Shown in pieces: positions 1-34,591 of a DNA stretch of 64,000 nt (position 1 is the stretch's first letter; every line of letters begins with the position of its first letter). This stretch comes from Lachnospiraceae bacterium (GTDB lineage Bacteria; Bacillota; Clostridia; Lachnospirales; Lachnospiraceae). The DNA lies in contig SVFT01000002.1 of the NCBI GenBank assembly GCA_015056735.1, positions 100,432 through 164,431 of the forward strand, written 5' to 3'. The notes below the pieces were generated by a model that was not told where the DNA came from, did not search any database, and saw only the letters and a list, made by a program, of their open reading frames with translations. The translations under genes and the position numbers were made by a program.

Positions 1-48
1 TCAAGGAAGGTCAATAGAGTACAAGAAACCATTGATAGGAGAATCTGT

Positions 49-1659
49 ATGAGCAAGACACGCACAAAAAAGGAACTTCTTGCAGTATTGATTTGTGTTG
101 AGGCGATCGCCGTGACGGCTGTCTGCTTCAATATCTGGCCGGATCAAAAGGCGTTTCCGCTCCTGATCCTGGCTGAGGCGGCTGCGACGTTTTTCGCACT
201 GCTCTCCTTGAAAAAAGAGCTTTCGAATCCGGGAAGGGATGATGAGCCCGTATCGTCGGAAGAAAGTATCGCGATCTCGGAAGAGCGCGCAGCACTCGAA
301 GAGGAGCGTGCGTCGATTGAAGATCTGCGTCAGATGCTCGAAGAAGAAAAAACGCGTCTCGAGCAGATAAAAGCGGATGCGGAAACCGGGTCGGGCGCTG
401 ACAGCGATGAACTGGAAAAACTGCGTGCGGAGCTTGAGGAAGAACGCGAGATCCGTGAAGAACTGGCTGACGAGATCGATGCCAAGACAGAAGAGATCCT
501 GCGTCAGCAGGTAATGATCGGCTCGGCACTGCAGGTGGCCAATGATGTTTCCAAAGCAAGATCCGAGTTTGTGACCACCATTTCGCACGATATCAGAACG
601 CCGATGAATGCGATCATCGGTTTTACCAATCTGGCATTGAAGGACGAAGGACTGTCCGAAGAGACACGTTCTTATCTGGCCAAGGTAAGCCGCGCATCCG
701 ATCATATGCAGGCAATGTTAGAGGAGCTTCTTGAATCCGGAAAGTCTCAGGTCGAGAAGGAATATGAAAAGCCGACGAATGTGCGGAAGCTGATGGAAGG
801 GCTCTGTACGTACGCAAAAGAAGATACTGATCGCAGGAAACAGATTTTCTCAATCGATACAACGGGTATTCGGGAGCGCGATGTGATCCTGGATCCGATC
901 CGCTTAAATCAGGTGATCCAGAATGCGTTCGCCGATGTGCAGAAGAGCACGCCTGAGTATGGCAAGCTCATGATCTCGGTTCGTGAGGACGAAGTGCCTG
1001 GCATGGATCGCAAGGAATATGATTTCTATATTTCAAGCGACAGGATCTATGAAGATGCAGATCCGGAGACGGACAGCTCCATGACCGTAACAAGGAATCT
1101 GGCAGAGCTTATGGGCGGCACGGTCGAAGTGCAGAATGAAGGCAGCGCAGGGCTGTGTATGACTGTAACGATCCCGTTCAGAGAGATCGGAGAAGAGAAG
1201 GAAGAGGAAGCGGCGGAGGCTGCGAGCCCTGAGGCGTACAGCATAGATGAATCCCGTTTCCACGGTGCGCATGTTCTTGTCGTGGAAGATTTTGAGCTGA
1301 ACATGGATATCACGCAGAAGATCTTAAGCGACCACGGTATGATCCCTGATGGCGCAGAGAACGGTCAGATCGCGCTCGATAAGATCAGCGGATCTCCCGC
1401 AGGCACGTACGATATGGTCCTCATGGATGTTGAGATGCCTGTTATGGACGGTCTTGAAGCGACAAGACGTATTCGTGATCTCGATGATCCGAAGCTTGCC
1501 AATATTCCGATCGTTGCCATGACGGCCAATGCATTTGCGGAAGATAAGGCATCAGCGCTTGAGGCAGGCATGGACGGCTATATCGCAAAGCCCATCAGCC
1601 CCGATAAGCTGCTTGCGACAATGGAAAGCCATATGCCTCGTACGCTCGGGAATCACTAA
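49..1659 (+). CDS. hybrid sensor histidine kinase / response regulator (TM, coiled coil, HisKA, degenerate HATPase, receiver)
   Basis: H-box SEFVTTISHDIRTPMNAIIGF. C-terminal receiver has VLVVEDF...MVLMDVEMPVMDG...AMTANAF...AKPI. The region where G1/G2 ATP-lid boxes should be has no DxGxG or GxGxGL. ATG at 49 follows a TAGGAG RBS. Confidence 0.85.
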   Translation: MSKTRTKKELLAVLICVEAIAVTAVCFNIWPDQKAFPLLILAEAAATFFALLSLKKELSNPGRDDEPVSSEESIAISEERAALEEERASIEDLRQMLEEEKTRLEQIKADAETGSGADSDELEKLRAELEEEREIREELADEIDAKTEEILRQQVMIGSALQVANDVSKARSEFVTTISHDIRTPMNAIIGFTNLALKDEGLSEETRSYLAKVSRASDHMQAMLEELLESGKSQVEKEYEKPTNVRKLMEGLCTYAKEDTDRRKQIFSIDTTGIRERDVILDPIRLNQVIQNAFADVQKSTPEYGKLMISVREDEVPGMDRKEYDFYISSDRIYEDADPETDSSMTVTRNLAELMGGTVEVQNEGSAGLCMTVTIPFREIGEEKEEEAAEAASPEAYSIDESRFHGAHVLVVEDFELNMDITQKILSDHGMIPDGAENGQIALDKISGSPAGTYDMVLMDVEMPVMDGLEATRRIRDLDDPKLANIPIVAMTANAFAEDKASALEAGMDGYIAKPISPDKLLATMESHMPRTLGNH

Positions 1660-1676
1660 AGGAAGAAGAGTAGTTT

Positions 1677-2237
1677 ATGAATGAATACAATGCAGTAATA
1701 ACGACTGTTATCATTGCGGCGATCACGTTCCTGATGCAAAAAGTGCTGAGCAATCTGTTCAGCGGCATCGCACTGATCGTTTCCAGACCGTTCAAAAAAG
1801 GCGATAAAGTACTGATCAAATATATGAACGGGAATGAGATCATCTCGGGCCGCATTGAGAGCATCAGTGTGATGCACGTTAAGATTAAAACGTACAATCG
1901 GGACATCTGCATCATTCCGAGCAACCAGTTTGATAATCTGGTCATCATCAACCGCGATCTCAGTGGCGGTGTGAACCATACGGAGACGATCGGGATCACG
2001 CCCGATTCGAATGTGGATAAGGCGATCGCGCTGATCCGTGCAGCTGTTTTGAGTGATGTTCAGACTGAAAATACGGATGAGAATACGCAGATCACCTGCA
2101 AAGCGGTTGGAAGCCGTCTCGTCCTGACATACAATGTCCGTACCTATAATGTGGATACCTCGTTTGAGGTATGCAGCGACATTACGAGACGTATCGTGCG
2201 TGACCTGAGTGAAGCGCCCGATATCACGATAGCCTGA
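1677..2237 (+). CDS. short MscS-like mechanosensitive channel family protein
   Basis: N-terminal TM helix followed by the MscS beta-domain signature GIALIVSRPFKKGDKVLI...GRIESISVMHVKIKTYNRDICIIPSNQF. RBS AAAGGAAG upstream. Confidence 0.55.
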   Translation: MNEYNAVITTVIIAAITFLMQKVLSNLFSGIALIVSRPFKKGDKVLIKYMNGNEIISGRIESISVMHVKIKTYNRDICIIPSNQFDNLVIINRDLSGGVNHTETIGITPDSNVDKAIALIRAAVLSDVQTENTDENTQITCKAVGSRLVLTYNVRTYNVDTSFEVCSDITRRIVRDLSEAPDITIA

Positions 2238-2248
2238 AGACGGATGAT

Positions 2249-2944
2249 ATGACCATGATGGAAAAAGATCTGTTCGGGCCGATAAAAGAATATTTTGAGA
2301 GCTTCGGCTATACGTGCGACGGAGAAGTGAAGGATATCGATCTCTATATGGAGAAAGACGGCGCCTCCGTTGCCGTGGAACTGAAGAAATCACTTGATTT
2401 TAAGGCTGTTCGCCAGGCTGCACTCAGACAGAAGGTGACGGATACCGTGTTCATCGCGATCTTTCGACCTTCCAATATGCGTGCGCATGCCTTTCGCGAC
2501 AGCCTGTATCTGTTAAAGAGGCTGGGGATCGGTTTGATCACTCTTGCGCCGCGAACAGGCGTCATTGAGATCGTAAACGAGCCTGTTGTCAGCGAACTGT
2601 CGCTTTATCTGAGACGTAACGGTGCGCAGAAAAAAGAGCTGGCGGCGGAATTTAGGCGACGTCGCATTAAAACAACGATCGGCGGTGTGACACACACGCA
2701 GGTGCTGACGGGATACCGTCAGGAAGCGCTGCTTGTCCTTCACGGTCTGAAATGCCTCGGCGGCGAATGTAAGGCATCTGACCTTCGGAGAGAGACCGGG
2801 ATCGAGCGGGCACGTCAGATCGTGTATGATAATCATTACGGCTGGTTTGAACGCGCAGGTCATGGAATCTACCGCATCACGGATGCAGGATACGATGCGC
2901 TGAGCGCCTACGCCGATGTACTGGGAGAACTCTTGAAAACATGA
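2249..2944 (+). CDS. PD-(D/E)XK nuclease-fold protein with C-terminal wHTH-like region (DUF2161-like)
   Basis: GEVKDIDLYMEKDG..VAVELKKS gives a D...ExK core typical of the restriction-endonuclease fold. The family name is from memory only. Confidence 0.45.
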   Translation: MTMMEKDLFGPIKEYFESFGYTCDGEVKDIDLYMEKDGASVAVELKKSLDFKAVRQAALRQKVTDTVFIAIFRPSNMRAHAFRDSLYLLKRLGIGLITLAPRTGVIEIVNEPVVSELSLYLRRNGAQKKELAAEFRRRRIKTTIGGVTHTQVLTGYRQEALLVLHGLKCLGGECKASDLRRETGIERARQIVYDNHYGWFERAGHGIYRITDAGYDALSAYADVLGELLKT

Positions 2945-3672
2945 AGATCAGTCTTTATGCGGATGCGGATACAAGCAGTGCAAAAGCAGAAGAAATAGCG
3001 GAAGCAGCGGGCTTTTCACGAATTTTGACTACGCCGGTCGATGAACTGTTTCTGCACCTTACCAAAGAAGGCCTGCGCCTTGAAAGGGACGGCCTTTTTG
3101 TTATGGGAGATTTTGACGCCATGAAAAGGCGCCTAAAGCGCGGAAATCTTTCCGGCGAGATGCTCGTTAAGGCGATGCGCTTAAAAGACATTTCGGAGCC
3201 TTATGTGATCGATGCGACGGCGGGTATGGGAGAAGACTCGCTCCTTCTTGCTGCTGCGGGATTTCGTATCGATCTGTACGAATACGATCCGGTGATCGCG
3301 GCGCTCCTTTCGGATGCGCTCTCGCGTGCGCAGACAGATCCGGCGTTGTCGGAAGCGGTTGGACGGATGAAGCTTTTTCAAAAAGACAGCATGAGCGCGA
3401 TGCAGGACATGACGGAAAAGCCGGATGCGATATACCTTGATCCGATGTTTCCGGGGCGCAAAAAGAGCGGCCTTGTGGGGAAGAAATTTCAACTCCTGCA
3501 GCAGCTTGAGAAGCCCTGCGATCATGAGGAAGAACTGCTTACGGCGGCACTTCGGCTAAAACCGAAAAAGGTCGTAGTGAAGCGTCCGCTCAAAGGACCG
3601 TTCCTTGCAGGACGCAAGCCGTCCTATTCACTTACGGGTAAGGCGATCCGTTATGATGTGATCATGCCATGA
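2941..3672 (+). CDS. rsmJ: class I SAM-dependent methyltransferase, RsmJ-like (16S rRNA m2G1516 family)
   Basis: VIDATAGMGEDSLLLAAAGFRIDLYEYDPVIAALLSDAL and IYLDPMFP match the RsmJ/YhiQ layout. ATGA overlap with the upstream gene. Confidence 0.7.
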   Translation: MKISLYADADTSSAKAEEIAEAAGFSRILTTPVDELFLHLTKEGLRLERDGLFVMGDFDAMKRRLKRGNLSGEMLVKAMRLKDISEPYVIDATAGMGEDSLLLAAAGFRIDLYEYDPVIAALLSDALSRAQTDPALSEAVGRMKLFQKDSMSAMQDMTEKPDAIYLDPMFPGRKKSGLVGKKFQLLQQLEKPCDHEEELLTAALRLKPKKVVVKRPLKGPFLAGRKPSYSLTGKAIRYDVIMP

Positions 3673-3703
3673 TAGGCTTATTTAGGGGGAGGATATCAAT
3701 ATC

Positions 3704-5032
3704 ATGAAGAAAAGACTTTTGCTTTCGGAGACGATCTTTGTCTCCAGTATGCTGTTTGGCCTGTTTTTCGGGGCAGGCAACCTGATCTTTCCGGTCCTGA
3801 TGGGGCAGGAGGCAGGGATGAACGTGTGGCCTGCTTCGTTCGGATTTCTGATCACGGGCGTGGGCCTGCCGCTTCTTGCGGTCGCGGCGCTCGGCATGAC
3901 GCGGTGTGACGGGCTCTTTGAACTTGCGGGGCGTGTCGGAACGGCGTACAGCCTCTTTTTTACCTGCGCACTGTATCTGACGATCGGACCGTTCTTTGCG
4001 ATCCCGAGATGCGCGACCGTATCCTTTACGATCGGTGTATCACCGATCCTGGGCGGCGAGTCGGCGCTCTGGCTCTTCGTCTTTTCGGTGTTGTTCTTTG
4101 CGGCGGTTTTGTGGTTCTCGCTCCATCCGAGCGGGATCCTGACATGGGTCGGCAAGATCTTAAATCCGCTGTTCCTTGTATTCCTGGCGATTCTGATGAT
4201 CCGTTCTTTTGTATCGCCGATGGGCTCTGTCTCCGGGATCGAGCCGATGGGCGGCTATATCGCAGCGGCGCTTCCGACCGGCTTCTTTGAAGGCTATAAT
4301 ACGATGGATGCGCTTGCGGGACTGGCATTTGGCATCATCGTCGTTACGGTCATCAAGAACCTCGGCGTGGAAGAGGGCGCGCCCGTTGCCGCCAATACGA
4401 TCCTTTCCGGGTTCTTCAGCTGCCTTCTGATGGGCGTGATCTATGTGCTGATGGCGCTCCTTGGCGCCCAGAGCCGCAATATCATGGAAGCCTGCGGCAA
4501 CGGTGGCGAGGCGCTTGCAAAGATCGCGGAGCATTATTTTGGCAGATACGGCGCATTCCTCCTTGCGATCATGGTCACGGTCGCATGTTTAAAGACGGCT
4601 GTCGGTCTTGTTACGAGCTGCAGCGAGACATTCAAAGGCATGTTTCCGAATGCGCTTGATGAGAAGAAATGGACGTACGTCTTTACGGGTATCTCCTTCG
4701 TCCTTGCAAATCTCGGACTCAACCAGATCATCGAGTTCTCGATTCCGGTGCTCGTTTTCTTATACCCGCTTGCGATGGTGCTGATCCTTCTGGCGCTTTC
4801 TGAGAAAATCTTTGCGGGCAGCAGTCTTGTGTATAAGGTGACGATCTACTGCACGCTGCCGGTGGCGATCTGCGATTTTATCAATGCGCTCCCCTTTGAG
4901 AGCATCCTTGTGGGGCCCGCGCAGACGGTTATCAATACGCTGCCCTTCGGCAATATGGGCTTTGGCTGGTGCATCCCGGCATTTGCAGGGTTTGTGGTGT
5001 CATTCGTGATCGCAAAGTGCCGGAAGGCATGA
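3704..5032 (+). CDS. brnQ: branched-chain amino acid transport system II carrier protein
   Basis: LFGLFFGAGNLIFPVLMGQEAG N-terminal signature, about 12 predicted TM helices, 442 aa. Confidence 0.9.
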   Translation: MKKRLLLSETIFVSSMLFGLFFGAGNLIFPVLMGQEAGMNVWPASFGFLITGVGLPLLAVAALGMTRCDGLFELAGRVGTAYSLFFTCALYLTIGPFFAIPRCATVSFTIGVSPILGGESALWLFVFSVLFFAAVLWFSLHPSGILTWVGKILNPLFLVFLAILMIRSFVSPMGSVSGIEPMGGYIAAALPTGFFEGYNTMDALAGLAFGIIVVTVIKNLGVEEGAPVAANTILSGFFSCLLMGVIYVLMALLGAQSRNIMEACGNGGEALAKIAEHYFGRYGAFLLAIMVTVACLKTAVGLVTSCSETFKGMFPNALDEKKWTYVFTGISFVLANLGLNQIIEFSIPVLVFLYPLAMVLILLALSEKIFAGSSLVYKVTIYCTLPVAICDFINALPFESILVGPAQTVINTLPFGNMGFGWCIPAFAGFVVSFVIAKCRKA

Positions 5033-5060
5033 TTGGGTTAATTTGAGTTTGTAGTAATAA

Positions 5061-5248
5061 GGGCGCGGAGCTGTTTTGAACTATCCTGATGCTGGCTCTC
5101 CGCACTAAATTCGCACGCACTCCTCAGAACATAGGCTTTCTGCGGAACTCGCTTCGCTCAAACAGGTCCTCGAAAGCCTATTGAGGAGCGCATGCTTATT
5201 AAGTGCTACGGCAAGCATCTGGGATAGTAGCAAAACAGCTCCGCGCCC
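5061..5248. repeat. structured palindromic element, copy A (~188 bp, 18-bp perfect self-TIRs GGGCGCGGAGCTGTTTTG / CAAAACAGCTCCGCGCCC)
   Basis: Arms 5061-5137 and 5174-5248 are self-complementary. The asymmetric apex at 5138-5173 is the reverse complement of the apex in copies B and C. Confidence 0.85.
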
Positions 5249-5354
5249 ATTTTAGATTCTGCTTTTATACTACTGGTACAATGACAGGTCGTGAAATGGA
5301 TAATACAATAATATGAGGAATGGAAGATCACGACGAGAGAGGTTTTGTGTACCA

Positions 5355-5951
5355 ATGTTACGCGAAGACGAGATCAAGAAGCAACGTAAAATCGGAAAGC
5401 AGTTAATGCTGGTTAATTTGTTTAATTGTGAAAAGGACAGTGTCGTGCCCGTTTCAATAGACGACGCAGCAGCGTGGGCTTCTATGGATATAAACGATGT
5501 TAGGAAGTTAAGCAACTTTTGGAGAGGGTTTTCATCCTATGAATTATCGTGGGGCGCAGTTCATGCCTATGAACGTGGAGAAGAATATGCGGGTAGAAAC
5601 GCAAATTTATTTTTGTTTAGAACATGTATGGTTTATGGAAGCCTGTCGTTGGAGATATTGATTTGCAATTTAGAAAAGAAATTTGTGGATTATCTAGCAC
5701 ATGAAAATTATACTGAATATTGCAAAAAACACAGCACTCGGCCGATAAGGGATGAAATGAATCAATCGGGAGTTTTTGAAAAAATACTGCGTTATTACGA
5801 GGACCAGTTTATTGAAGTGCTTGAGGATGCAATTGCTGAAGGGTATGATTGGGATGTAATCTGTGAACTGGCGGGCTTTAGTATCTCAACTAAGAAATAT
5901 GCCCGATATTATGAGTCGTGCTTAGAAAAAAGTAAAGTTTCGGAAGCGTGA
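5355..5951 (+). CDS. hypothetical protein, first gene of the cassette (no recognisable domain)
   Basis: Long ORF in low-GC DNA on the same strand as its neighbours. The start is uncertain: ATG 5313 has no RBS, while ATG 5355 follows GAGAGAGG. The C-terminal segment DVICELAGFSISTKKYARYY looks HTH-like. Confidence 0.5.
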   Translation: MLREDEIKKQRKIGKQLMLVNLFNCEKDSVVPVSIDDAAAWASMDINDVRKLSNFWRGFSSYELSWGAVHAYERGEEYAGRNANLFLFRTCMVYGSLSLEILICNLEKKFVDYLAHENYTEYCKKHSTRPIRDEMNQSGVFEKILRYYEDQFIEVLEDAIAEGYDWDVICELAGFSISTKKYARYYESCLEKSKVSEA

Positions 5952-5975
5952 AGATTTCAACTTTCTTAAAGGAGC

Positions 5976-6296
5976 GTGCGGCCTGTGGAGAGAAGATATC
6001 CTGTTCTTGATGTCGTAAAGACCGGACAAAATATAAAGAAAATTATGCAGGCAAGAGGTCTTACTGTTAGAGATATTCAAACGTTTCTCGGACTTGGGAC
6101 ACCGCAAGCAATCTACCATTGGTTTGAAGGGAGAAATGCACCGACACTTGATAACGTGTATGCGCTCAGCGAACTGTTTCGTCTGCCTATAGATGCAATC
6201 TTATGCGGGAACCGGAAGAATATCTTTTTGTCTAGTCAAACTAGTGGGAGAAGGCTATATGCATATTATGTGGGCATCCTTGGGATGATTGCATAA
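5976..6296 (+). CDS. XRE-family helix-turn-helix transcriptional regulator
   Basis: IKKIMQARGLTVRDIQTFLGLGTPQAIYHWFEGRNAPTLDNVYALSELFRLPIDAIL is a classic HTH_3/Cro-C1 pattern. GTG start after AAGGAG. Confidence 0.8.
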   Translation: MRPVERRYPVLDVVKTGQNIKKIMQARGLTVRDIQTFLGLGTPQAIYHWFEGRNAPTLDNVYALSELFRLPIDAILCGNRKNIFLSSQTSGRRLYAYYVGILGMIA

Positions 6297-6321
6297 GGGG
6301 CAACTGCCTGCCGGAATACTG

Positions 6322-6350
6322 TTTATGATCATGATTTATCGTGATATAAT
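6322..6350 (+). promoter_or_regulatory. predicted extended -10 promoter for the 97-aa ORF / vapD pair
   Basis: TGATATAAT at 6342-6350 (TGnTATAAT) with a weak -35 TTTATG about 17 nt upstream. The palindrome ATGATCAT at 6325-6332 overlaps the -35. Confidence 0.45.
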
Positions 6351-6390
6351 ACAGTCAAACTTGTATTTATTTTTTATGAGGTTTGTTATT

Positions 6391-6684
6391 ATGATGAAGA
6401 TGCTTATTAAGATGGATGAAGCAAAAATACGTGAAGAAAGAAAGTATGATATTTCTAAGATCAATGCTTATCTTGCTAAGGCCTTTGCAAAGCGTCATAT
6501 GGAGCTGGATGATGATGGCTGGTATATCAACGGGAATTTTAGTACTTGTGGTTCCCTTATTATCACGCTTTCTCAGAAAGATTGGTTTATTGACAATCTT
6601 ATGGAGTGGCTTTGGTATGACGAAGAGGATGCCAGTACAGAGGATTTAAAAGCTCGTTATTCCAAGGAGAAGACCATTGCCTAA
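6391..6684 (+). CDS. hypothetical 97-aa protein, translationally coupled upstream partner of VapD
   Basis: ATG 6391 follows TGAGGT. The ORF end overlaps the vapD start by 8 nt. I recognise no family. Confidence 0.55.
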   Translation: MMKMLIKMDEAKIREERKYDISKINAYLAKAFAKRHMELDDDGWYINGNFSTCGSLIITLSQKDWFIDNLMEWLWYDEEDASTEDLKARYSKEKTIA

Positions 6685-7018
6685 TGAAGTTAGAAGGCGA
6701 TATGCCATTAATTTTGATCTTACGATTAAACAGCTTGAGGAGCATTACTCGAGTGATCATCCGAAGCGCGCATATGGTCAGATTGCAAGTTATATGAAAA
6801 AGCATGGCTTTTCTCATAGGCAGTGGTCTGGTTATATTTCAGATATAACGCTGACAAAATCGGAACTTGTTGATTTCACATCGGATTTACACATGACTTT
6901 TCCTTGGTTGATAAAATGTGAAGGAAGCATGGATGCAACCGTAATCAGTGGTATTTTTGATATTAAACAAATGATTCTTGATACGATGTCTGATGAAGAC
7001 GATGATATTGAGCTTTGA
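6677..7018 (+). CDS. vapD: VapD-family (Cas2-fold) endoribonuclease-like protein
   Basis: N-terminus RRYAINFDLTIKQLEEHY...KRAYGQIASYMKKHGFSHRQWSGYI follows the VapD pattern (YA..FDL ... Y..I...L...GF...QGSVY). TTG start at 6677 with AAGGAGA 5 nt upstream. Confidence 0.7.
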   Translation: MPNEVRRRYAINFDLTIKQLEEHYSSDHPKRAYGQIASYMKKHGFSHRQWSGYISDITLTKSELVDFTSDLHMTFPWLIKCEGSMDATVISGIFDIKQMILDTMSDEDDDIEL

Positions 7019-7060
7019 ATATGGTTCTATTTCGATTATGTAGATAAATTGCAGCGAAAA

Positions 7061-7091
7061 GCGGCAGGTCAATTTGACCTGTCGCTTTTTG
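7061..7091 (+). terminator. rho-independent terminator after vapD
   Basis: GCGGCAGGTC-AATTT-GACCTGTCGC hairpin followed by TTTTTG. Confidence 0.75.
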
Positions 7092-7126
7092 TTTGTTTCA
7101 ACTTGGTTTAACGAGGAGGTACTGTT

Positions 7127-7753
7127 ATGTGTGAATTTGGTTATGCTCGGATATCATCAAAAGATCAAAATCCGTCTAGACAACTTGATGCTCTTTTGGA
7201 CAGAGGAGTTGAGGAGAGAAATATTTATGTTGATTATGAATCAGGAAAAGATTTTAACCGACCGCAGTATAAGAATTTAATGAATCGATTGAGATATGGC
7301 GATTCTATCGTAATCAAGAGTATTGATCGACTCGGGCGCAACTACGGTGAGATTCTTGACCAATGGAGAATTATAACGCAGATGAAGGGCGTTTTCATCG
7401 AGGTTTTGGACATGCCGCTTTTGAACACATCTGTCCAAAGAGATAATCTTACAGGCCGGTTGATTTCCGACCTGGTTTTGCAAATCTTGGCATATGTCGC
7501 GGAAACAGAAAGATCTTTTATTAAGCAGAGACAGCGTGAGGGAATCATTTCCGCGAAGAAGCGCGGAATTTGTTTTGGAAGGCCGAAAGTGAAAGAATCC
7601 GACCTATTTGAAGTAGCATACTTTAAATGGCTTAAGGGACAATTGTCTTCGCGCGAAGCTGCTGCGTTTGCTGATATGAAGCATTCCACATTCTACCGGC
7701 GTTGCAAAGAGCGGAAAATGTACGAAAACTCCGTGTTAGAAAGTAGACAATGA
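7127..7753 (+). CDS. small serine recombinase (resolvase/invertase family)
   Basis: GYARISSKDQNPSRQLDAL catalytic-serine motif, VIKSIDRLGRN, ERSFIKQRQREGI, C-terminal HTH; 208 aa. RBS GAGGAGG. Confidence 0.9.
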   Translation: MCEFGYARISSKDQNPSRQLDALLDRGVEERNIYVDYESGKDFNRPQYKNLMNRLRYGDSIVIKSIDRLGRNYGEILDQWRIITQMKGVFIEVLDMPLLNTSVQRDNLTGRLISDLVLQILAYVAETERSFIKQRQREGIISAKKRGICFGRPKVKESDLFEVAYFKWLKGQLSSREAAAFADMKHSTFYRRCKERKMYENSVLESRQ

Positions 7754-7858
7754 GAAACAGTCGATTTGTCGCAACATTGTATGCTTTTTCTTCTTTTTTC
7801 TCATTATAAATCTTCCGTTTCAGAAAGTCTGTTTTTTGAAACAAGGAGGAAAGTTATT

Positions 7859-8761
7859 ATGAAGTGTCCAAATTGTGGGGCGGAAATAGGACCTACTAGC
7901 CAGTTTTGTGCATCATGTGGATCTCAAATATCATATGAAATGAAAAGAGAGCAAGAACAATTAAACAAACAAGGTTGTCCTCATTGCGGAAGTTCAAACA
8001 TCTCTTTTAATCGTGAAAAGCAAGCAGAGTTCCGCGCTAAAAATGGAACGAATGTAATTCGGCGTACTGTTGGATTGTGTAAAGACTGCGGTTATACTTG
8101 GAGCACGAACATGGATGTTCCCGAGAAAAAATCTAAACTCTGGTTGTGGGTATTGGGGTGGATATGCATTTTTCCTGTTCCCTTGACCATTTTATTATTG
8201 CGAAATAAAGATATGAAACCAGCTTTGAAATATGCAATTATAGCAGTTGCATGGATTGTATTCCTTATTATTGGTCTGAGTGGAAAGTCAAAAGATACAA
8301 AACAGCAGGCTGCAAATGAAAAGTCACAAACAGAGGTTGAAACAGTTTCAGAAGAAAAAGAAACAGCCAATGCTGATGCTGAAGAAGTGATGGATGTTGT
8401 GCTGAAAGTCGAACCTAATATAAATGTTGATGACGGAACCGTTCTCTTTGGTATAACGACAAATTTGCCAGAGAATACGGAATTGATGATAACGGTATCC
8501 AATGCTGATGGATATAAAGCACAAGATAAAGTTGTCATCCTTGCAAAGGGCTCTGGGTTCACGTCAGAGTTTTCGGATCATGGTAAGGCACTTAAAGGCG
8601 ATTATGATGTAAGCGTTTCGATGAGCTTACCAGCGTTACAAAAGGATTCTGTGAGAAAAGTTATTGGTGAAGAAGGTGAAAGAATAGGTGGGCAGTATGT
8701 AAAGAAAAGTGAGATCGGTCATTCCAATTATGTATCTGGTGAATTTCATTTTTCATTCTAG
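7859..8761 (+). CDS. double zinc-ribbon, two-TM membrane protein with C-terminal extracytoplasmic domain (function unknown)
   Basis: CPNCGAEI..FCASCG and CPHCGSS...CKDCGYTW zinc-ribbon pairs, then two hydrophobic helices (LWLWVLGWICIFPVPLTILLL, YAIIAVAWIVFLIIGL). ATG 7859 follows AAGGAGG. Confidence 0.65.
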   Translation: MKCPNCGAEIGPTSQFCASCGSQISYEMKREQEQLNKQGCPHCGSSNISFNREKQAEFRAKNGTNVIRRTVGLCKDCGYTWSTNMDVPEKKSKLWLWVLGWICIFPVPLTILLLRNKDMKPALKYAIIAVAWIVFLIIGLSGKSKDTKQQAANEKSQTEVETVSEEKETANADAEEVMDVVLKVEPNINVDDGTVLFGITTNLPENTELMITVSNADGYKAQDKVVILAKGSGFTSEFSDHGKALKGDYDVSVSMSLPALQKDSVRKVIGEEGERIGGQYVKKSEIGHSNYVSGEFHFSF

Positions 8762-8778
8762 AGAATGGTGCGAGTATC

Positions 8779-8968
8779 CGGCGCAGGAGGCTGTTTTGCT
8801 ACTATCCCAGATGCTTGCAGGAGCACTTAATGAATGAGTACTCCTCTACAGGCTTTCGAGGACCTGTTTGAGCGAAGCGAGTTCCGCAGAAAGCCTGTGT
8901 TTAGAGGAGTGCTTATGAATTTAGTGCGGAGAGCCAGCATCAGGATAGTTCAAAACAGCTCCGCGCCC
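8779..8968. repeat. structured palindromic element, copy B (inverted relative to copy A)
   Basis: By eye, close to 90% identical to the reverse complement of 5061-5248. Apex at 8856-8891. Confidence 0.85.
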
Positions 8969-8974
8969 TAATAT

Positions 8975-10657
8975 TTACTTGATCACGATCCGCCCCTGCG
9001 GCTCTTTGTAGCGCTCATCCACCCTGCCGCCGAGCTCTTCTGCGATGTAATCGATTACGGCATTCTCAAGCGGGATGCCCAGATTGTTGCCGCCTTTTTC
9101 GTAAGGGGCTTTGAGAACGGTGTAGGTATCGCCGCCGGTTGCGAGAAAGTCGTTGGTGACAAGGATGTATGTCTTATTCAGATCAAGTGGCACGCCGCCG
9201 ACCTTGACATCCGTAATACGTTTGCCGGGTGCTGCCGGTGCAAAGTAAGTGGAGTTTTCGTATGCGGCACCCTTTTCATAAGGGATGCCGGTGTTGATCG
9301 TAAAGCTGATACCTGCTACCTGCGGGAATGCACCGATCGGTTCGGGGTATACGCTACATGCAACTTCGAGCATTTCAAGCACCTGCGCACCGGTAACGGG
9401 GACCGTACAGAGCGTATTACTGAATGGGAACACGCTGATCAGGTCTTTTCTGGTGACTTCGCCGGGAACAACACTTGCGCGGATGTTCCCGCCGTTACAA
9501 ATCGAGATGTCCGCATGGATGCCCGCTTTTCGGAGCGCATAGAGCTGCGCATCGTTTGTGAGGTCACCGAAGTTTGTTTCCGCCGTGCGGCTGCCGTTTG
9601 CAACGGTTTCGATGACGTTTCCTTTCTTATCAAGGATATCGCCGCCTGCTTTCGTGCCGTTTAGGATAACGGATGACTGCGCGATGACCTGTCTGCTTTT
9701 TTCATCAAGGTAAGCGTTATAGGCATCGCCGAGCGCTGTCAGTTCGGGATCGTATGCACCTTTATAATCGGATGCCGAGATCAGAGAGGCGGTCATCTTA
9801 TTTCCGTCGTATACAACCTTTCCGACATTTGCAAGATTGCAGCCGGTGCTGGTAAGGAGCGTATCACCGACCATGATTCCTCCGGGCATCTCGGTATGGC
9901 TGTGTGCGTCAACGAACAGATTGATGCCGGTCGTATGTGCGAGCAGGTCGGTTGAACGGTTCGGGGCATCCGCCTGATCTATGCCCAGGTGGCCGACACA
10001 GATGATCAGATCACAGCCGTGTGCCTTCAGCGTATCGACCTGCGCCTGCGCACAGTCGTAGAGTTCCTGTTCTGCCAGGATCTTGTAAGGCTCCACATAT
10101 TTCGGCATGGATGTTGTGATCGTTGTCGGCGTGGTCAGACCGAAGATGCCGACTTTGTATCCTTTCGGCGTTTGGGTGATGATGTTCGCCGGGAATACGG
10201 GCTTGCCGGAATCTTTGTAGAATACGTTGGCGGAGAGGACGGGAAAACGGATTGCGCCGAGCAGCTTTTCCATATGCGCCGGTGCGTAATCAAATTCGTG
10301 ATTGCCTACCGTCATCATGGTATAGCCGACTCTGTTGACAAAATCGATGGCGGAGTTCCCTTGCGTGACCGTTGTCATGATCGTTCCCTGGATGATGTCT
10401 CCGGCATTGAGGAGCAGTACGTCTGCGCCTGTATCTTCATAGTATTCTTTGATCGCTTTGACACCGGCACTTCCAAGCGATATACCGCTTTCGGCAATGT
10501 CATGTCCGTGCGAATCATTGGTATGCAGAATGACAAGTTTGCCGGAAAGATTTTCTGCCGGCGCCTTTTGGGCAAAAACCGCAAGCGGCATGGCCAAAGT
10601 GAGCACAACGGTCAATGCCGGGAGCATCGCCAGTGCTTTTATCAATCGTTTCTTCAT
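8975..10657 (-). CDS. secreted bifunctional metallophosphatase / 5'-nucleotidase (UshA/CpdB-like)
   Basis: Signal peptide, then ILHTNDSHGH, GDIIQG and GNHEFD metallophosphoesterase motifs plus a C-terminal 5'-nucleotidase domain. Confidence 0.85.
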   Translation of the reverse strand: MKKRLIKALAMLPALTVVLTLAMPLAVFAQKAPAENLSGKLVILHTNDSHGHDIAESGISLGSAGVKAIKEYYEDTGADVLLLNAGDIIQGTIMTTVTQGNSAIDFVNRVGYTMMTVGNHEFDYAPAHMEKLLGAIRFPVLSANVFYKDSGKPVFPANIITQTPKGYKVGIFGLTTPTTITTSMPKYVEPYKILAEQELYDCAQAQVDTLKAHGCDLIICVGHLGIDQADAPNRSTDLLAHTTGINLFVDAHSHTEMPGGIMVGDTLLTSTGCNLANVGKVVYDGNKMTASLISASDYKGAYDPELTALGDAYNAYLDEKSRQVIAQSSVILNGTKAGGDILDKKGNVIETVANGSRTAETNFGDLTNDAQLYALRKAGIHADISICNGGNIRASVVPGEVTRKDLISVFPFSNTLCTVPVTGAQVLEMLEVACSVYPEPIGAFPQVAGISFTINTGIPYEKGAAYENSTYFAPAAPGKRITDVKVGGVPLDLNKTYILVTNDFLATGGDTYTVLKAPYEKGGNNLGIPLENAVIDYIAEELGGRVDERYKEPQGRIVIK

Positions 10658-34414: not shown

Positions 34415-34591
34415 CGCTTTCTCCTTACTGTTTCCCATGCATTCGCATGTGCACTTAGCGAATCGGTCTTCTTCAACGATCATTTCGAGGACTGTTTGAG
34501 CGAAGCGAGTTCCGCAGAAATGATCGACGCTTTGAAGAAGGCGGATGAGTTTAGTGCCGAAATGCGCGCATGGAAACAGTATGAGAAAGCG
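34415..34591. repeat. structured palindromic element, copy C (same apex as A/B, different arms)
   Basis: The apex at 34485-34519 matches 8856-8891 except for one missing C. Arms 34415-34484 and 34520-34591 are self-complementary. GCACTTA and TTTAGTGC boxes are shared with A/B. Confidence 0.8.

Follow-up and report, generated by a model that had tools for sequence, protein, structure and literature searches.

Among the toxin-antitoxin systems built around VapD, the closest described relative of the locus considered here is VapWD. VapW was defined by Gilep et al. (2025, mBio; PMC11980593) as a homologue of VapD that lacks catalytic activity and is encoded beside vapD. For the VapW-VapD pairs of C. 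jejuni and S. equi, toxicity in E. coli, rescue by the antitoxin and co-purification of the two proteins were reported; the VapW-associated VapDs were placed in a separate clade and were seen to induce the SOS response in E. coli; and in the 2:2 C. jejuni complex (9KAN) VapW occupies the VapD surface for hexamer-type assembly and not the catalytic cleft (PMC11980593). In the VapXD system of Haemophilus influenzae (6ZN8, 6ZI0) the cleft is instead plugged by VapX, an SH3-fold protein (PMC11980593). Here we present the computational analysis of positions 6322-7098 of a 64,000-nucleotide (nt) stretch of Lachnospiraceae bacterium DNA (assembly GCA_015056735.1, contig SVFT01000002.1), referred to throughout as the window, and conclude that this segment is very probably a self-contained VapWD type II toxin-antitoxin operon, composed of a VapD toxin and a VapW antitoxin that is itself a VapD paralogue.

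The 113-amino-acid (aa) protein of the operon is a VapD toxin of the Cas2-fold nuclease family, and NCBIfam, PDB sequence and Foldseek searches all agree with the earlier note on this DNA, which had read VapD from the sequence alone. The product of 6677-7018 matches the NCBIfam VapD profile NF041506 over its full length (E 2e-24, 85.8 bits), and the PDB sequence search returned C. jejuni VapD (9kan_A, E 8.2e-14) and X. fastidiosa VapD (5dyr_A, E 4.4e-6), the match to H. influenzae VapD being marginal (E 0.03-0.05). Its AlphaFold2 (AF2) model, with a predicted local distance difference test (pLDDT) value of 78.7, follows the order beta1-alpha1'-alpha1-beta2-beta3-alpha2-alpha2'-beta4 plus a C-terminal helix, that is, a modified, Cas2-like ferredoxin fold, for which the best Foldseek match is again 9kan_A (E 1e-7; template modelling (TM) score 0.72-0.76), followed by H. 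pylori and H. influenzae VapD (3ui3, 6zn8) and then by Cas2 proteins. The motifs YAINFDL and HRQWSGY are present, and in the alignment with C. jejuni VapD (9kan_A) the catalytic residues D11 and S46 of the latter correspond to D14 and S51 of the window protein; D14 is kept in 26 of 27 homologues and S51, which lies within the invariant HRQxSGY motif, in all of them. The earlier description of VapD proteins as Cas2-like endoribonucleases holds as regards the fold, whereas the word endoribonuclease is uncertain for this clade, since SOS induction by VapW-associated VapDs points to an effect at the level of DNA. Residues 104-113 (window 6986-7015) form a subfamily-conserved and strongly acidic C-terminal tail, SDEDDDIEL here, where confidence in the model is low; in the 9KAN crystal the equivalent C-terminal end is disordered.

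The 97-aa protein encoded immediately upstream is VapW, a catalytically dead VapD paralogue in the antitoxin role. It matches no Pfam, NCBIfam, PADLOC or PHROG family, and had been regarded as belonging to no assignable family, a label out of date since VapW was described in 2025. A single-sequence PDB search connects it to 9kan_B ("VapW antitoxin", E 9.5e-5), and a deep profile search with the same protein recovered 282 cluster representatives at E <= 1e-3, mostly of 90-115 aa, from which 71 members were taken for a VapW family alignment and profile (A3). This profile matches 9KAN_B at E 1.6e-19 (73 bits) and also weakly recovers the VapD toxins of H. influenzae (2.8e-3) and H. pylori (5.5e-3). 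The AF2 model (pLDDT 89.6; predicted TM score, pTM, 0.76) has the element order beta1-alpha1'-alpha1-beta-beta-alpha2-alpha2'-beta4-beta-alpha3, and Foldseek ranks 9KAN_D/B first (TM 0.78, root-mean-square deviation 2.5 A over 97 residues) with VapD toxins next (TM 0.65-0.67), so that the VapW and VapD chains of 9KAN are the best structural matches of the respective models. The cognate partnership proposed for the 97-aa protein is thereby borne out, and the speculation that it might hold a second, degenerate Cas2/VapD-like fold was correct, this being VapW as defined in PMC11980593.

To locate the catalytic positions in VapW, its alignment with 9KAN_B was read against the residue numbering of PMC11980593. 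The equivalent of the catalytic Ser is D42 (E47 in C. jejuni VapW), in a column that holds Ser in only 3 of the 71 members, and the equivalent of the catalytic Asp is K7 (V11 in C. jejuni), in a column that is variable. Neither the Pfam scan nor the AF2 model reveals a DNA-binding domain in VapW. Among the deep-search matches, P0152 (203 aa) joins VapW (residues 1-99) and VapD (NCBIfam match at 113-197) in a natural fusion, and as a sequence it supports a physical association of the two proteins in this family. Three other proteins of 215-240 aa (P0134, P0145 and P0150) hold two stretches that match the VapW profile and no VapD match, and may be tandem VapW-VapW proteins.

The operon is read from the forward strand and is made up of the following parts:

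6322-6350, forward strand: vapWD promoter, with a weak -35-like TTTATG at 6322-6327, a 17-nt spacer and the extended -10 TGATATAAT at 6342-6350
6379-6382, forward strand: vapW Shine-Dalgarno sequence GAGG, 8 nt before the ATG at 6391, read from the sequence
6391-6684, forward strand: vapW, the 97-aa antitoxin open reading frame (ORF) with ATG start, assigned by the 9kan_B match, the AF2 fold and Foldseek
6664-6670, forward strand: vapD Shine-Dalgarno sequence AAGGAGA, inside the 3' end of vapW and 6 nt before the TTG
6677-7018, forward strand: vapD, the 113-aa toxin ORF with TTG start, overlapping vapW by 8 nt and assigned by its VapD matches
7051-7098, forward strand: intrinsic terminator, with a 10-bp G+C-rich stem (7061-7070/7076-7085), an A-tract/T-tract extension and a T-run

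The promoter, both ORFs, their 8-nt overlap and the terminator were all found at or near the positions proposed earlier; the spacing of AAGGAGA to the TTG is 6 nt and not 5. At a 17-nt spacing TTTATG is the sole -35 candidate, and a consensus scan did not list this promoter because only three of its six positions match. The related loci examined number 26 and represent 13 distinct neighbourhoods, in all of which an extended -10 of the form TGnTAnAnT lies 25-40 nt 5' of vapW; the promoter is therefore no chance match. Homologous loci also carry GGAG(G) at an equal distance before vapW, and the MMKML start of the 97-aa ORF is kept in 19 homologues.

The junction of the two genes (window 6664-6686) is kept in homologous loci L005-L026: AAGGAG lies within the 3' end of vapW, and vapD starts at TTG or GTG with an overlap of 8 nt. 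The only exceptions are L016/L017, where an ATG follows directly after the stop without overlap. This conserved combination of weak start and overlap probably keeps translation of the toxin below that of the antitoxin. The terminator hairpin (7051-7096) has a predicted stability of -29.5 kcal/mol (z = -7.06), which none of 200 shuffled sequences equalled; the simple consensus scan overlooked it too, and hairpins also occur 3' of vapD in several other contexts. An Rfam scan of 4800-9200 gave just a sub-threshold CsrC match, located on this terminator, and no structured RNA that explains the inverted-repeat arms of the surrounding cassette.

The linkage of the two genes is conserved across genomes, as had been anticipated. 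A vapW homologue (60-75% identity) is intact in every one of the 13 neighbourhoods, and vapD or a recognisable remnant of it follows 3' in 12; vapD is intact in 7 and damaged or missing beside an intact vapW in the other 6. The lesions comprise a nonsense codon (L011), a frameshift (L021), a deletion (L023), truncations (L024, L025) and an N-terminal deletion (L026), some of which could be assembly errors of metagenome-assembled genomes (MAGs). Read from these sequences, the lesions suggest that the toxin has been lost repeatedly while orphan antitoxins were kept, and independent inactivation of vapD beside an intact vapW would fit a toxic VapD and a protective VapW. The neighbourhoods are mutually unrelated; among them are hrcA-grpE-dnaK, an MFS transporter with an aminotransferase, a conjugative element with ArdC/RadC, a topoisomerase and a large serine recombinase. 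What is conserved and mobile is therefore the operon of two genes, promoter and terminator included.

When set beside the published VapWD pairs (PMC11980593), the window locus shares the antitoxin gene upstream of the toxin gene in a single operon, a VapD toxin that keeps the catalytic Asp and Ser, and a VapD-fold antitoxin without the catalytic Ser, and the chains of 9KAN are the top sequence and structure matches for both of its proteins. It differs in that VapW and VapD share only about 25% and about 34% identity, respectively, with their crystallised C. jejuni counterparts, in the acidic C-terminal tail conserved in the window VapD subfamily, and in that a cassette with an invertase gene and flanking inverted repeats carries the pair, mobility and regulation being undiscussed in PMC11980593. 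With VapXD of H. influenzae the locus shares an upstream antitoxin gene and a toxin of the VapD superfamily, alike in fold and in catalytic residues; the antitoxin there is the SH3-fold VapX and here a VapD paralogue of VapW type, and the similarity of the toxin sequences is marginal, as noted above.

The pair is thus a real observation and not a new one, being a member of a family already published in 2025 with a crystal structure; no further paper mentioning VapWD was found in the literature searched. The window VapD matches MBE5846642.1, of a Lachnospiraceae MAG, exactly; both this accession and its sequence appear in Table S1 of PMC11980593. In the annotation of the source MAG, MBE5846641.1 (vapW) and MBE5846642.1 (vapD) are each labelled "hypothetical protein", and each gene is single-copy in the window. 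The significance is therefore mostly one of annotation, as two hypothetical proteins become nameable as vapW and vapD. Small additions to the published description are the promoter-to-terminator stretch as the unit of travel, the conserved weak and coupled start of the toxin, the many unrelated places, chromosomal as well as mobile, where the pair has landed in Clostridia of the gut and rumen, and the frequent inactivation of the toxin with the antitoxin kept. For questions of VapWD regulation and of the VapD substrate, this locus is no more tractable than the pairs already characterised.

With regard to mechanism, VapD would act as a Cas2-fold nuclease toxin through its retained catalytic D14 and S51, and VapW, the paralogue without the catalytic Ser, would serve as its antitoxin. 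By analogy with the C. jejuni crystal structure, VapW would bind the VapD dimer in a 2:2 complex and would contact the VapD surface for higher-order, hexamer-type assembly and not the catalytic cleft. If VapD behaves like its counterparts from C. jejuni and S. equi, the unbound toxin would attack nucleic acid and bring about an SOS-type arrest. At the level of the sequence, the single extended -10 promoter drives both genes and the strong terminator closes the unit. The antitoxin begins at an ATG with its own Shine-Dalgarno sequence and the toxin at a weak TTG, with an 8-nt overlap between this start and the end of the antitoxin gene, so that toxin synthesis is coupled to antitoxin translation and probably lower. 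As to its role, the context of the pair suggests that it probably stabilises the roughly 3.5-kb low-GC cassette by addiction.

Several points weigh against this interpretation or parts of it. The NF041506 score of VapD (85.8 bits) lies below the curated equivalog cutoff of 100, and no Pfam VapD or Cas2 match was obtained for the 113-aa protein even at E <= 1; the profile placement in the VapD family comes from NCBIfam, and a Pfam scan taken as the sole test would have led to a wrong rejection of the VapD call. For VapW, hhalign of its family against the VapD family gave no significant result, whether a shallow or a deep alignment was used, and paralogy therefore rests on the fold and on weak profile matches. 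VapW also has a conserved D9 (window 6415-6417; D in 60 and N in 11 of the 71 members) after strand beta-1, two residues downstream of the position that PMC11980593 aligns with the catalytic Asp; the loss of the catalytic Asp in VapW is therefore alignment-dependent. At the interface, the salt-bridge residues R57/R61 of C. jejuni VapD are S62/D66 in the window VapD, so the detail of the contact may differ here. Toxicity, neutralisation and binding mode are all carried over from homologues at 25-34% identity, and the stabilising role, itself drawn from context, found no counterpart in a tblastn search of VapW against plasmid and phage collections, which gave no match. As an observation apart, D9 occupies the topological place of the catalytic Asp of VapD, and it may be an active-site relic or a structural residue.

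Among the other explanations, a role for VapWD in abortive infection or phage defence, in place of cassette stabilisation, fares best and is still unlikely. Toxin-antitoxin systems often act in this manner, and Gilep et al. raise the possibility in their discussion for duplicated VapWD loci in gut bacteria (PMC11980593); moreover, some neighbourhoods of homologues of the XRE gene that precedes the pair in the cassette look like defence islands (DEAD/ResIII helicase with PLD nuclease, AAA_14 ATPases). However, PADLOC returned no defence-system match except a weak Cas2_II one for VapD (0.0049), neither protein matches a PHROG family, and the contexts of the pair are mainly housekeeping genes or mobile elements (ArdC/RadC, topoisomerase, large serine recombinases), while the frequent decay of the toxin argues against strong selection for a working one.

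The XRE gene itself was part of an earlier proposal, in which it formed a three-component module with the pair:

5976-6296, forward strand: XRE gene (HTH_3, E 1.6e-8)

It shares the strand of vapW, 46 nt 5' of the promoter of that gene, and no terminator separates the two; VapW, devoid of a DNA-binding domain, could plausibly be served by an external regulator. A perfect 8-nt palindrome, ATGATCAT, covers the -35 position of the vapW promoter at 6325-6332; judged from its sequence it could be a candidate operator for the adjacent XRE protein, and it was not seen 5' of the XRE gene itself. That the XRE protein would supply the DNA binding which VapW lacks, for example through ATGATCAT, giving a local, repressor-gated VapWD, is improbable even when counted together with a second reading, namely that intact vapW beside decayed vapD is kept as anti-addiction immunity against incoming vapWD elements.

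As an obligate third partner that gates or regulates VapW-VapD, the XRE protein is very unlikely. The gene accompanies the pair only in 100% identical copies of the window cassette, and in the other 12 of the 13 contexts the pair has its own promoter with no such XRE gene and no recognisable helix-turn-helix neighbour. The XRE family, with at least 200 clusters, is about tenfold larger than this VapW subfamily, and tblastn found neither vapW nor vapD in the three sampled contexts of XRE homologues at 56-59% identity. A conserved XRE-VapW-VapD system is not supported on these grounds; the pair is independent of the XRE gene, which we infer to belong to the cassette and not to the conserved toxin-antitoxin unit. 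XRE homologues (L028-L036) lie repeatedly just downstream of large defence-like or unknown genes, such as a PRiA4_ORF3/SEC-C protein of 798 aa, a DEAD/ResIII helicase with PLD nuclease and an 886-aa unknown, and the XRE gene may go with its upstream neighbour rather than with vapWD.

The inactivation of vapD in 6 of the 13 related contexts raises the question of whether the window pair might be a decaying, non-functional remnant with an inactive toxin, for which there is little probability: both window ORFs run to full length; D14, S51 and the invariant HRQxSGY motif are preserved, and so are the promoter, the Shine-Dalgarno sequences and the terminator; and four independent metagenome assemblies carry the locus with 100% identity. 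Lastly, that the 113-aa protein is a Cas2 of CRISPR adaptation, or a relic of one, deserves practically no credence, for although it shares with Cas2 the modified ferredoxin fold and dimeric nuclease architecture, recovers Cas2 structures at lower rank in Foldseek and gives the weak PADLOC Cas2_II match, its top matches are all VapD with Cas2 structures below every one of them, it has no Pfam Cas2 (PF09827) match and no cas1 or CRISPR context, no cas gene occurs in any of the 13 neighbourhoods, and it is always paired with VapW.

The vapWD operon of the window is carried on a low-GC island (5240-8790; 37-42% GC against 52-58% in the flanks) of about 3.5 kb, which has a branched-chain amino-acid transporter gene on one side and a 5'-nucleotidase gene on the other and holds six genes, namely orf212, the XRE gene, vapW, vapD, a small serine recombinase gene and a gene for a zinc-ribbon membrane protein. 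Those that remain to be listed are:

5313-5951: orf212, 212 aa, with no Pfam, NCBIfam or PHROG family and a weak PADLOC PDC-M13C match (0.008)
7127-7753: Hin/Gin-type small serine recombinase (DNA invertase; Resolvase E 2e-26, PHROG DNA invertase E 1.9e-47)
7766-8761: zinc-ribbon membrane protein

Inverted repeats of 183 nt (5057-5239 and 8790-8972), 90% complementary, bracket the island, and the left arm has a 24-nt terminal inverted repeat of its own (5055-5078/5231-5254). The low GC content, the inverted repeats and the invertase gene support the view that the cassette was acquired and is probably mobile, and the mobile cassette suggested earlier is in this respect plausible. An invertible segment was considered and rejected, as all four independent assemblies share the orientation of the window and give no evidence of inversion. 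The whole window was scanned for tRNA genes and has none, hence no tRNA integration site either, and a metagenome scan for the repeat arm found just one extra locus, so the arm does not belong to an abundant miniature inverted-repeat transposable element.

At a related locus (L027, positions 1-4717), about 80% identical in the 5'-nucleotidase gene, one copy of the repeat lies at the same position, and beyond it, in the place of the cassette, stand an IS21 element (IstA 514 aa, IstB 295 aa) and a secreted protein of 239 aa; the repeat appears to flag a variable site that is prone to insertion. Through the same locus a 77-nt stretch at window 34445-34520 was found to share about 80% identity with the core of this arm, and the arm sequence may thus be a dispersed repeat.

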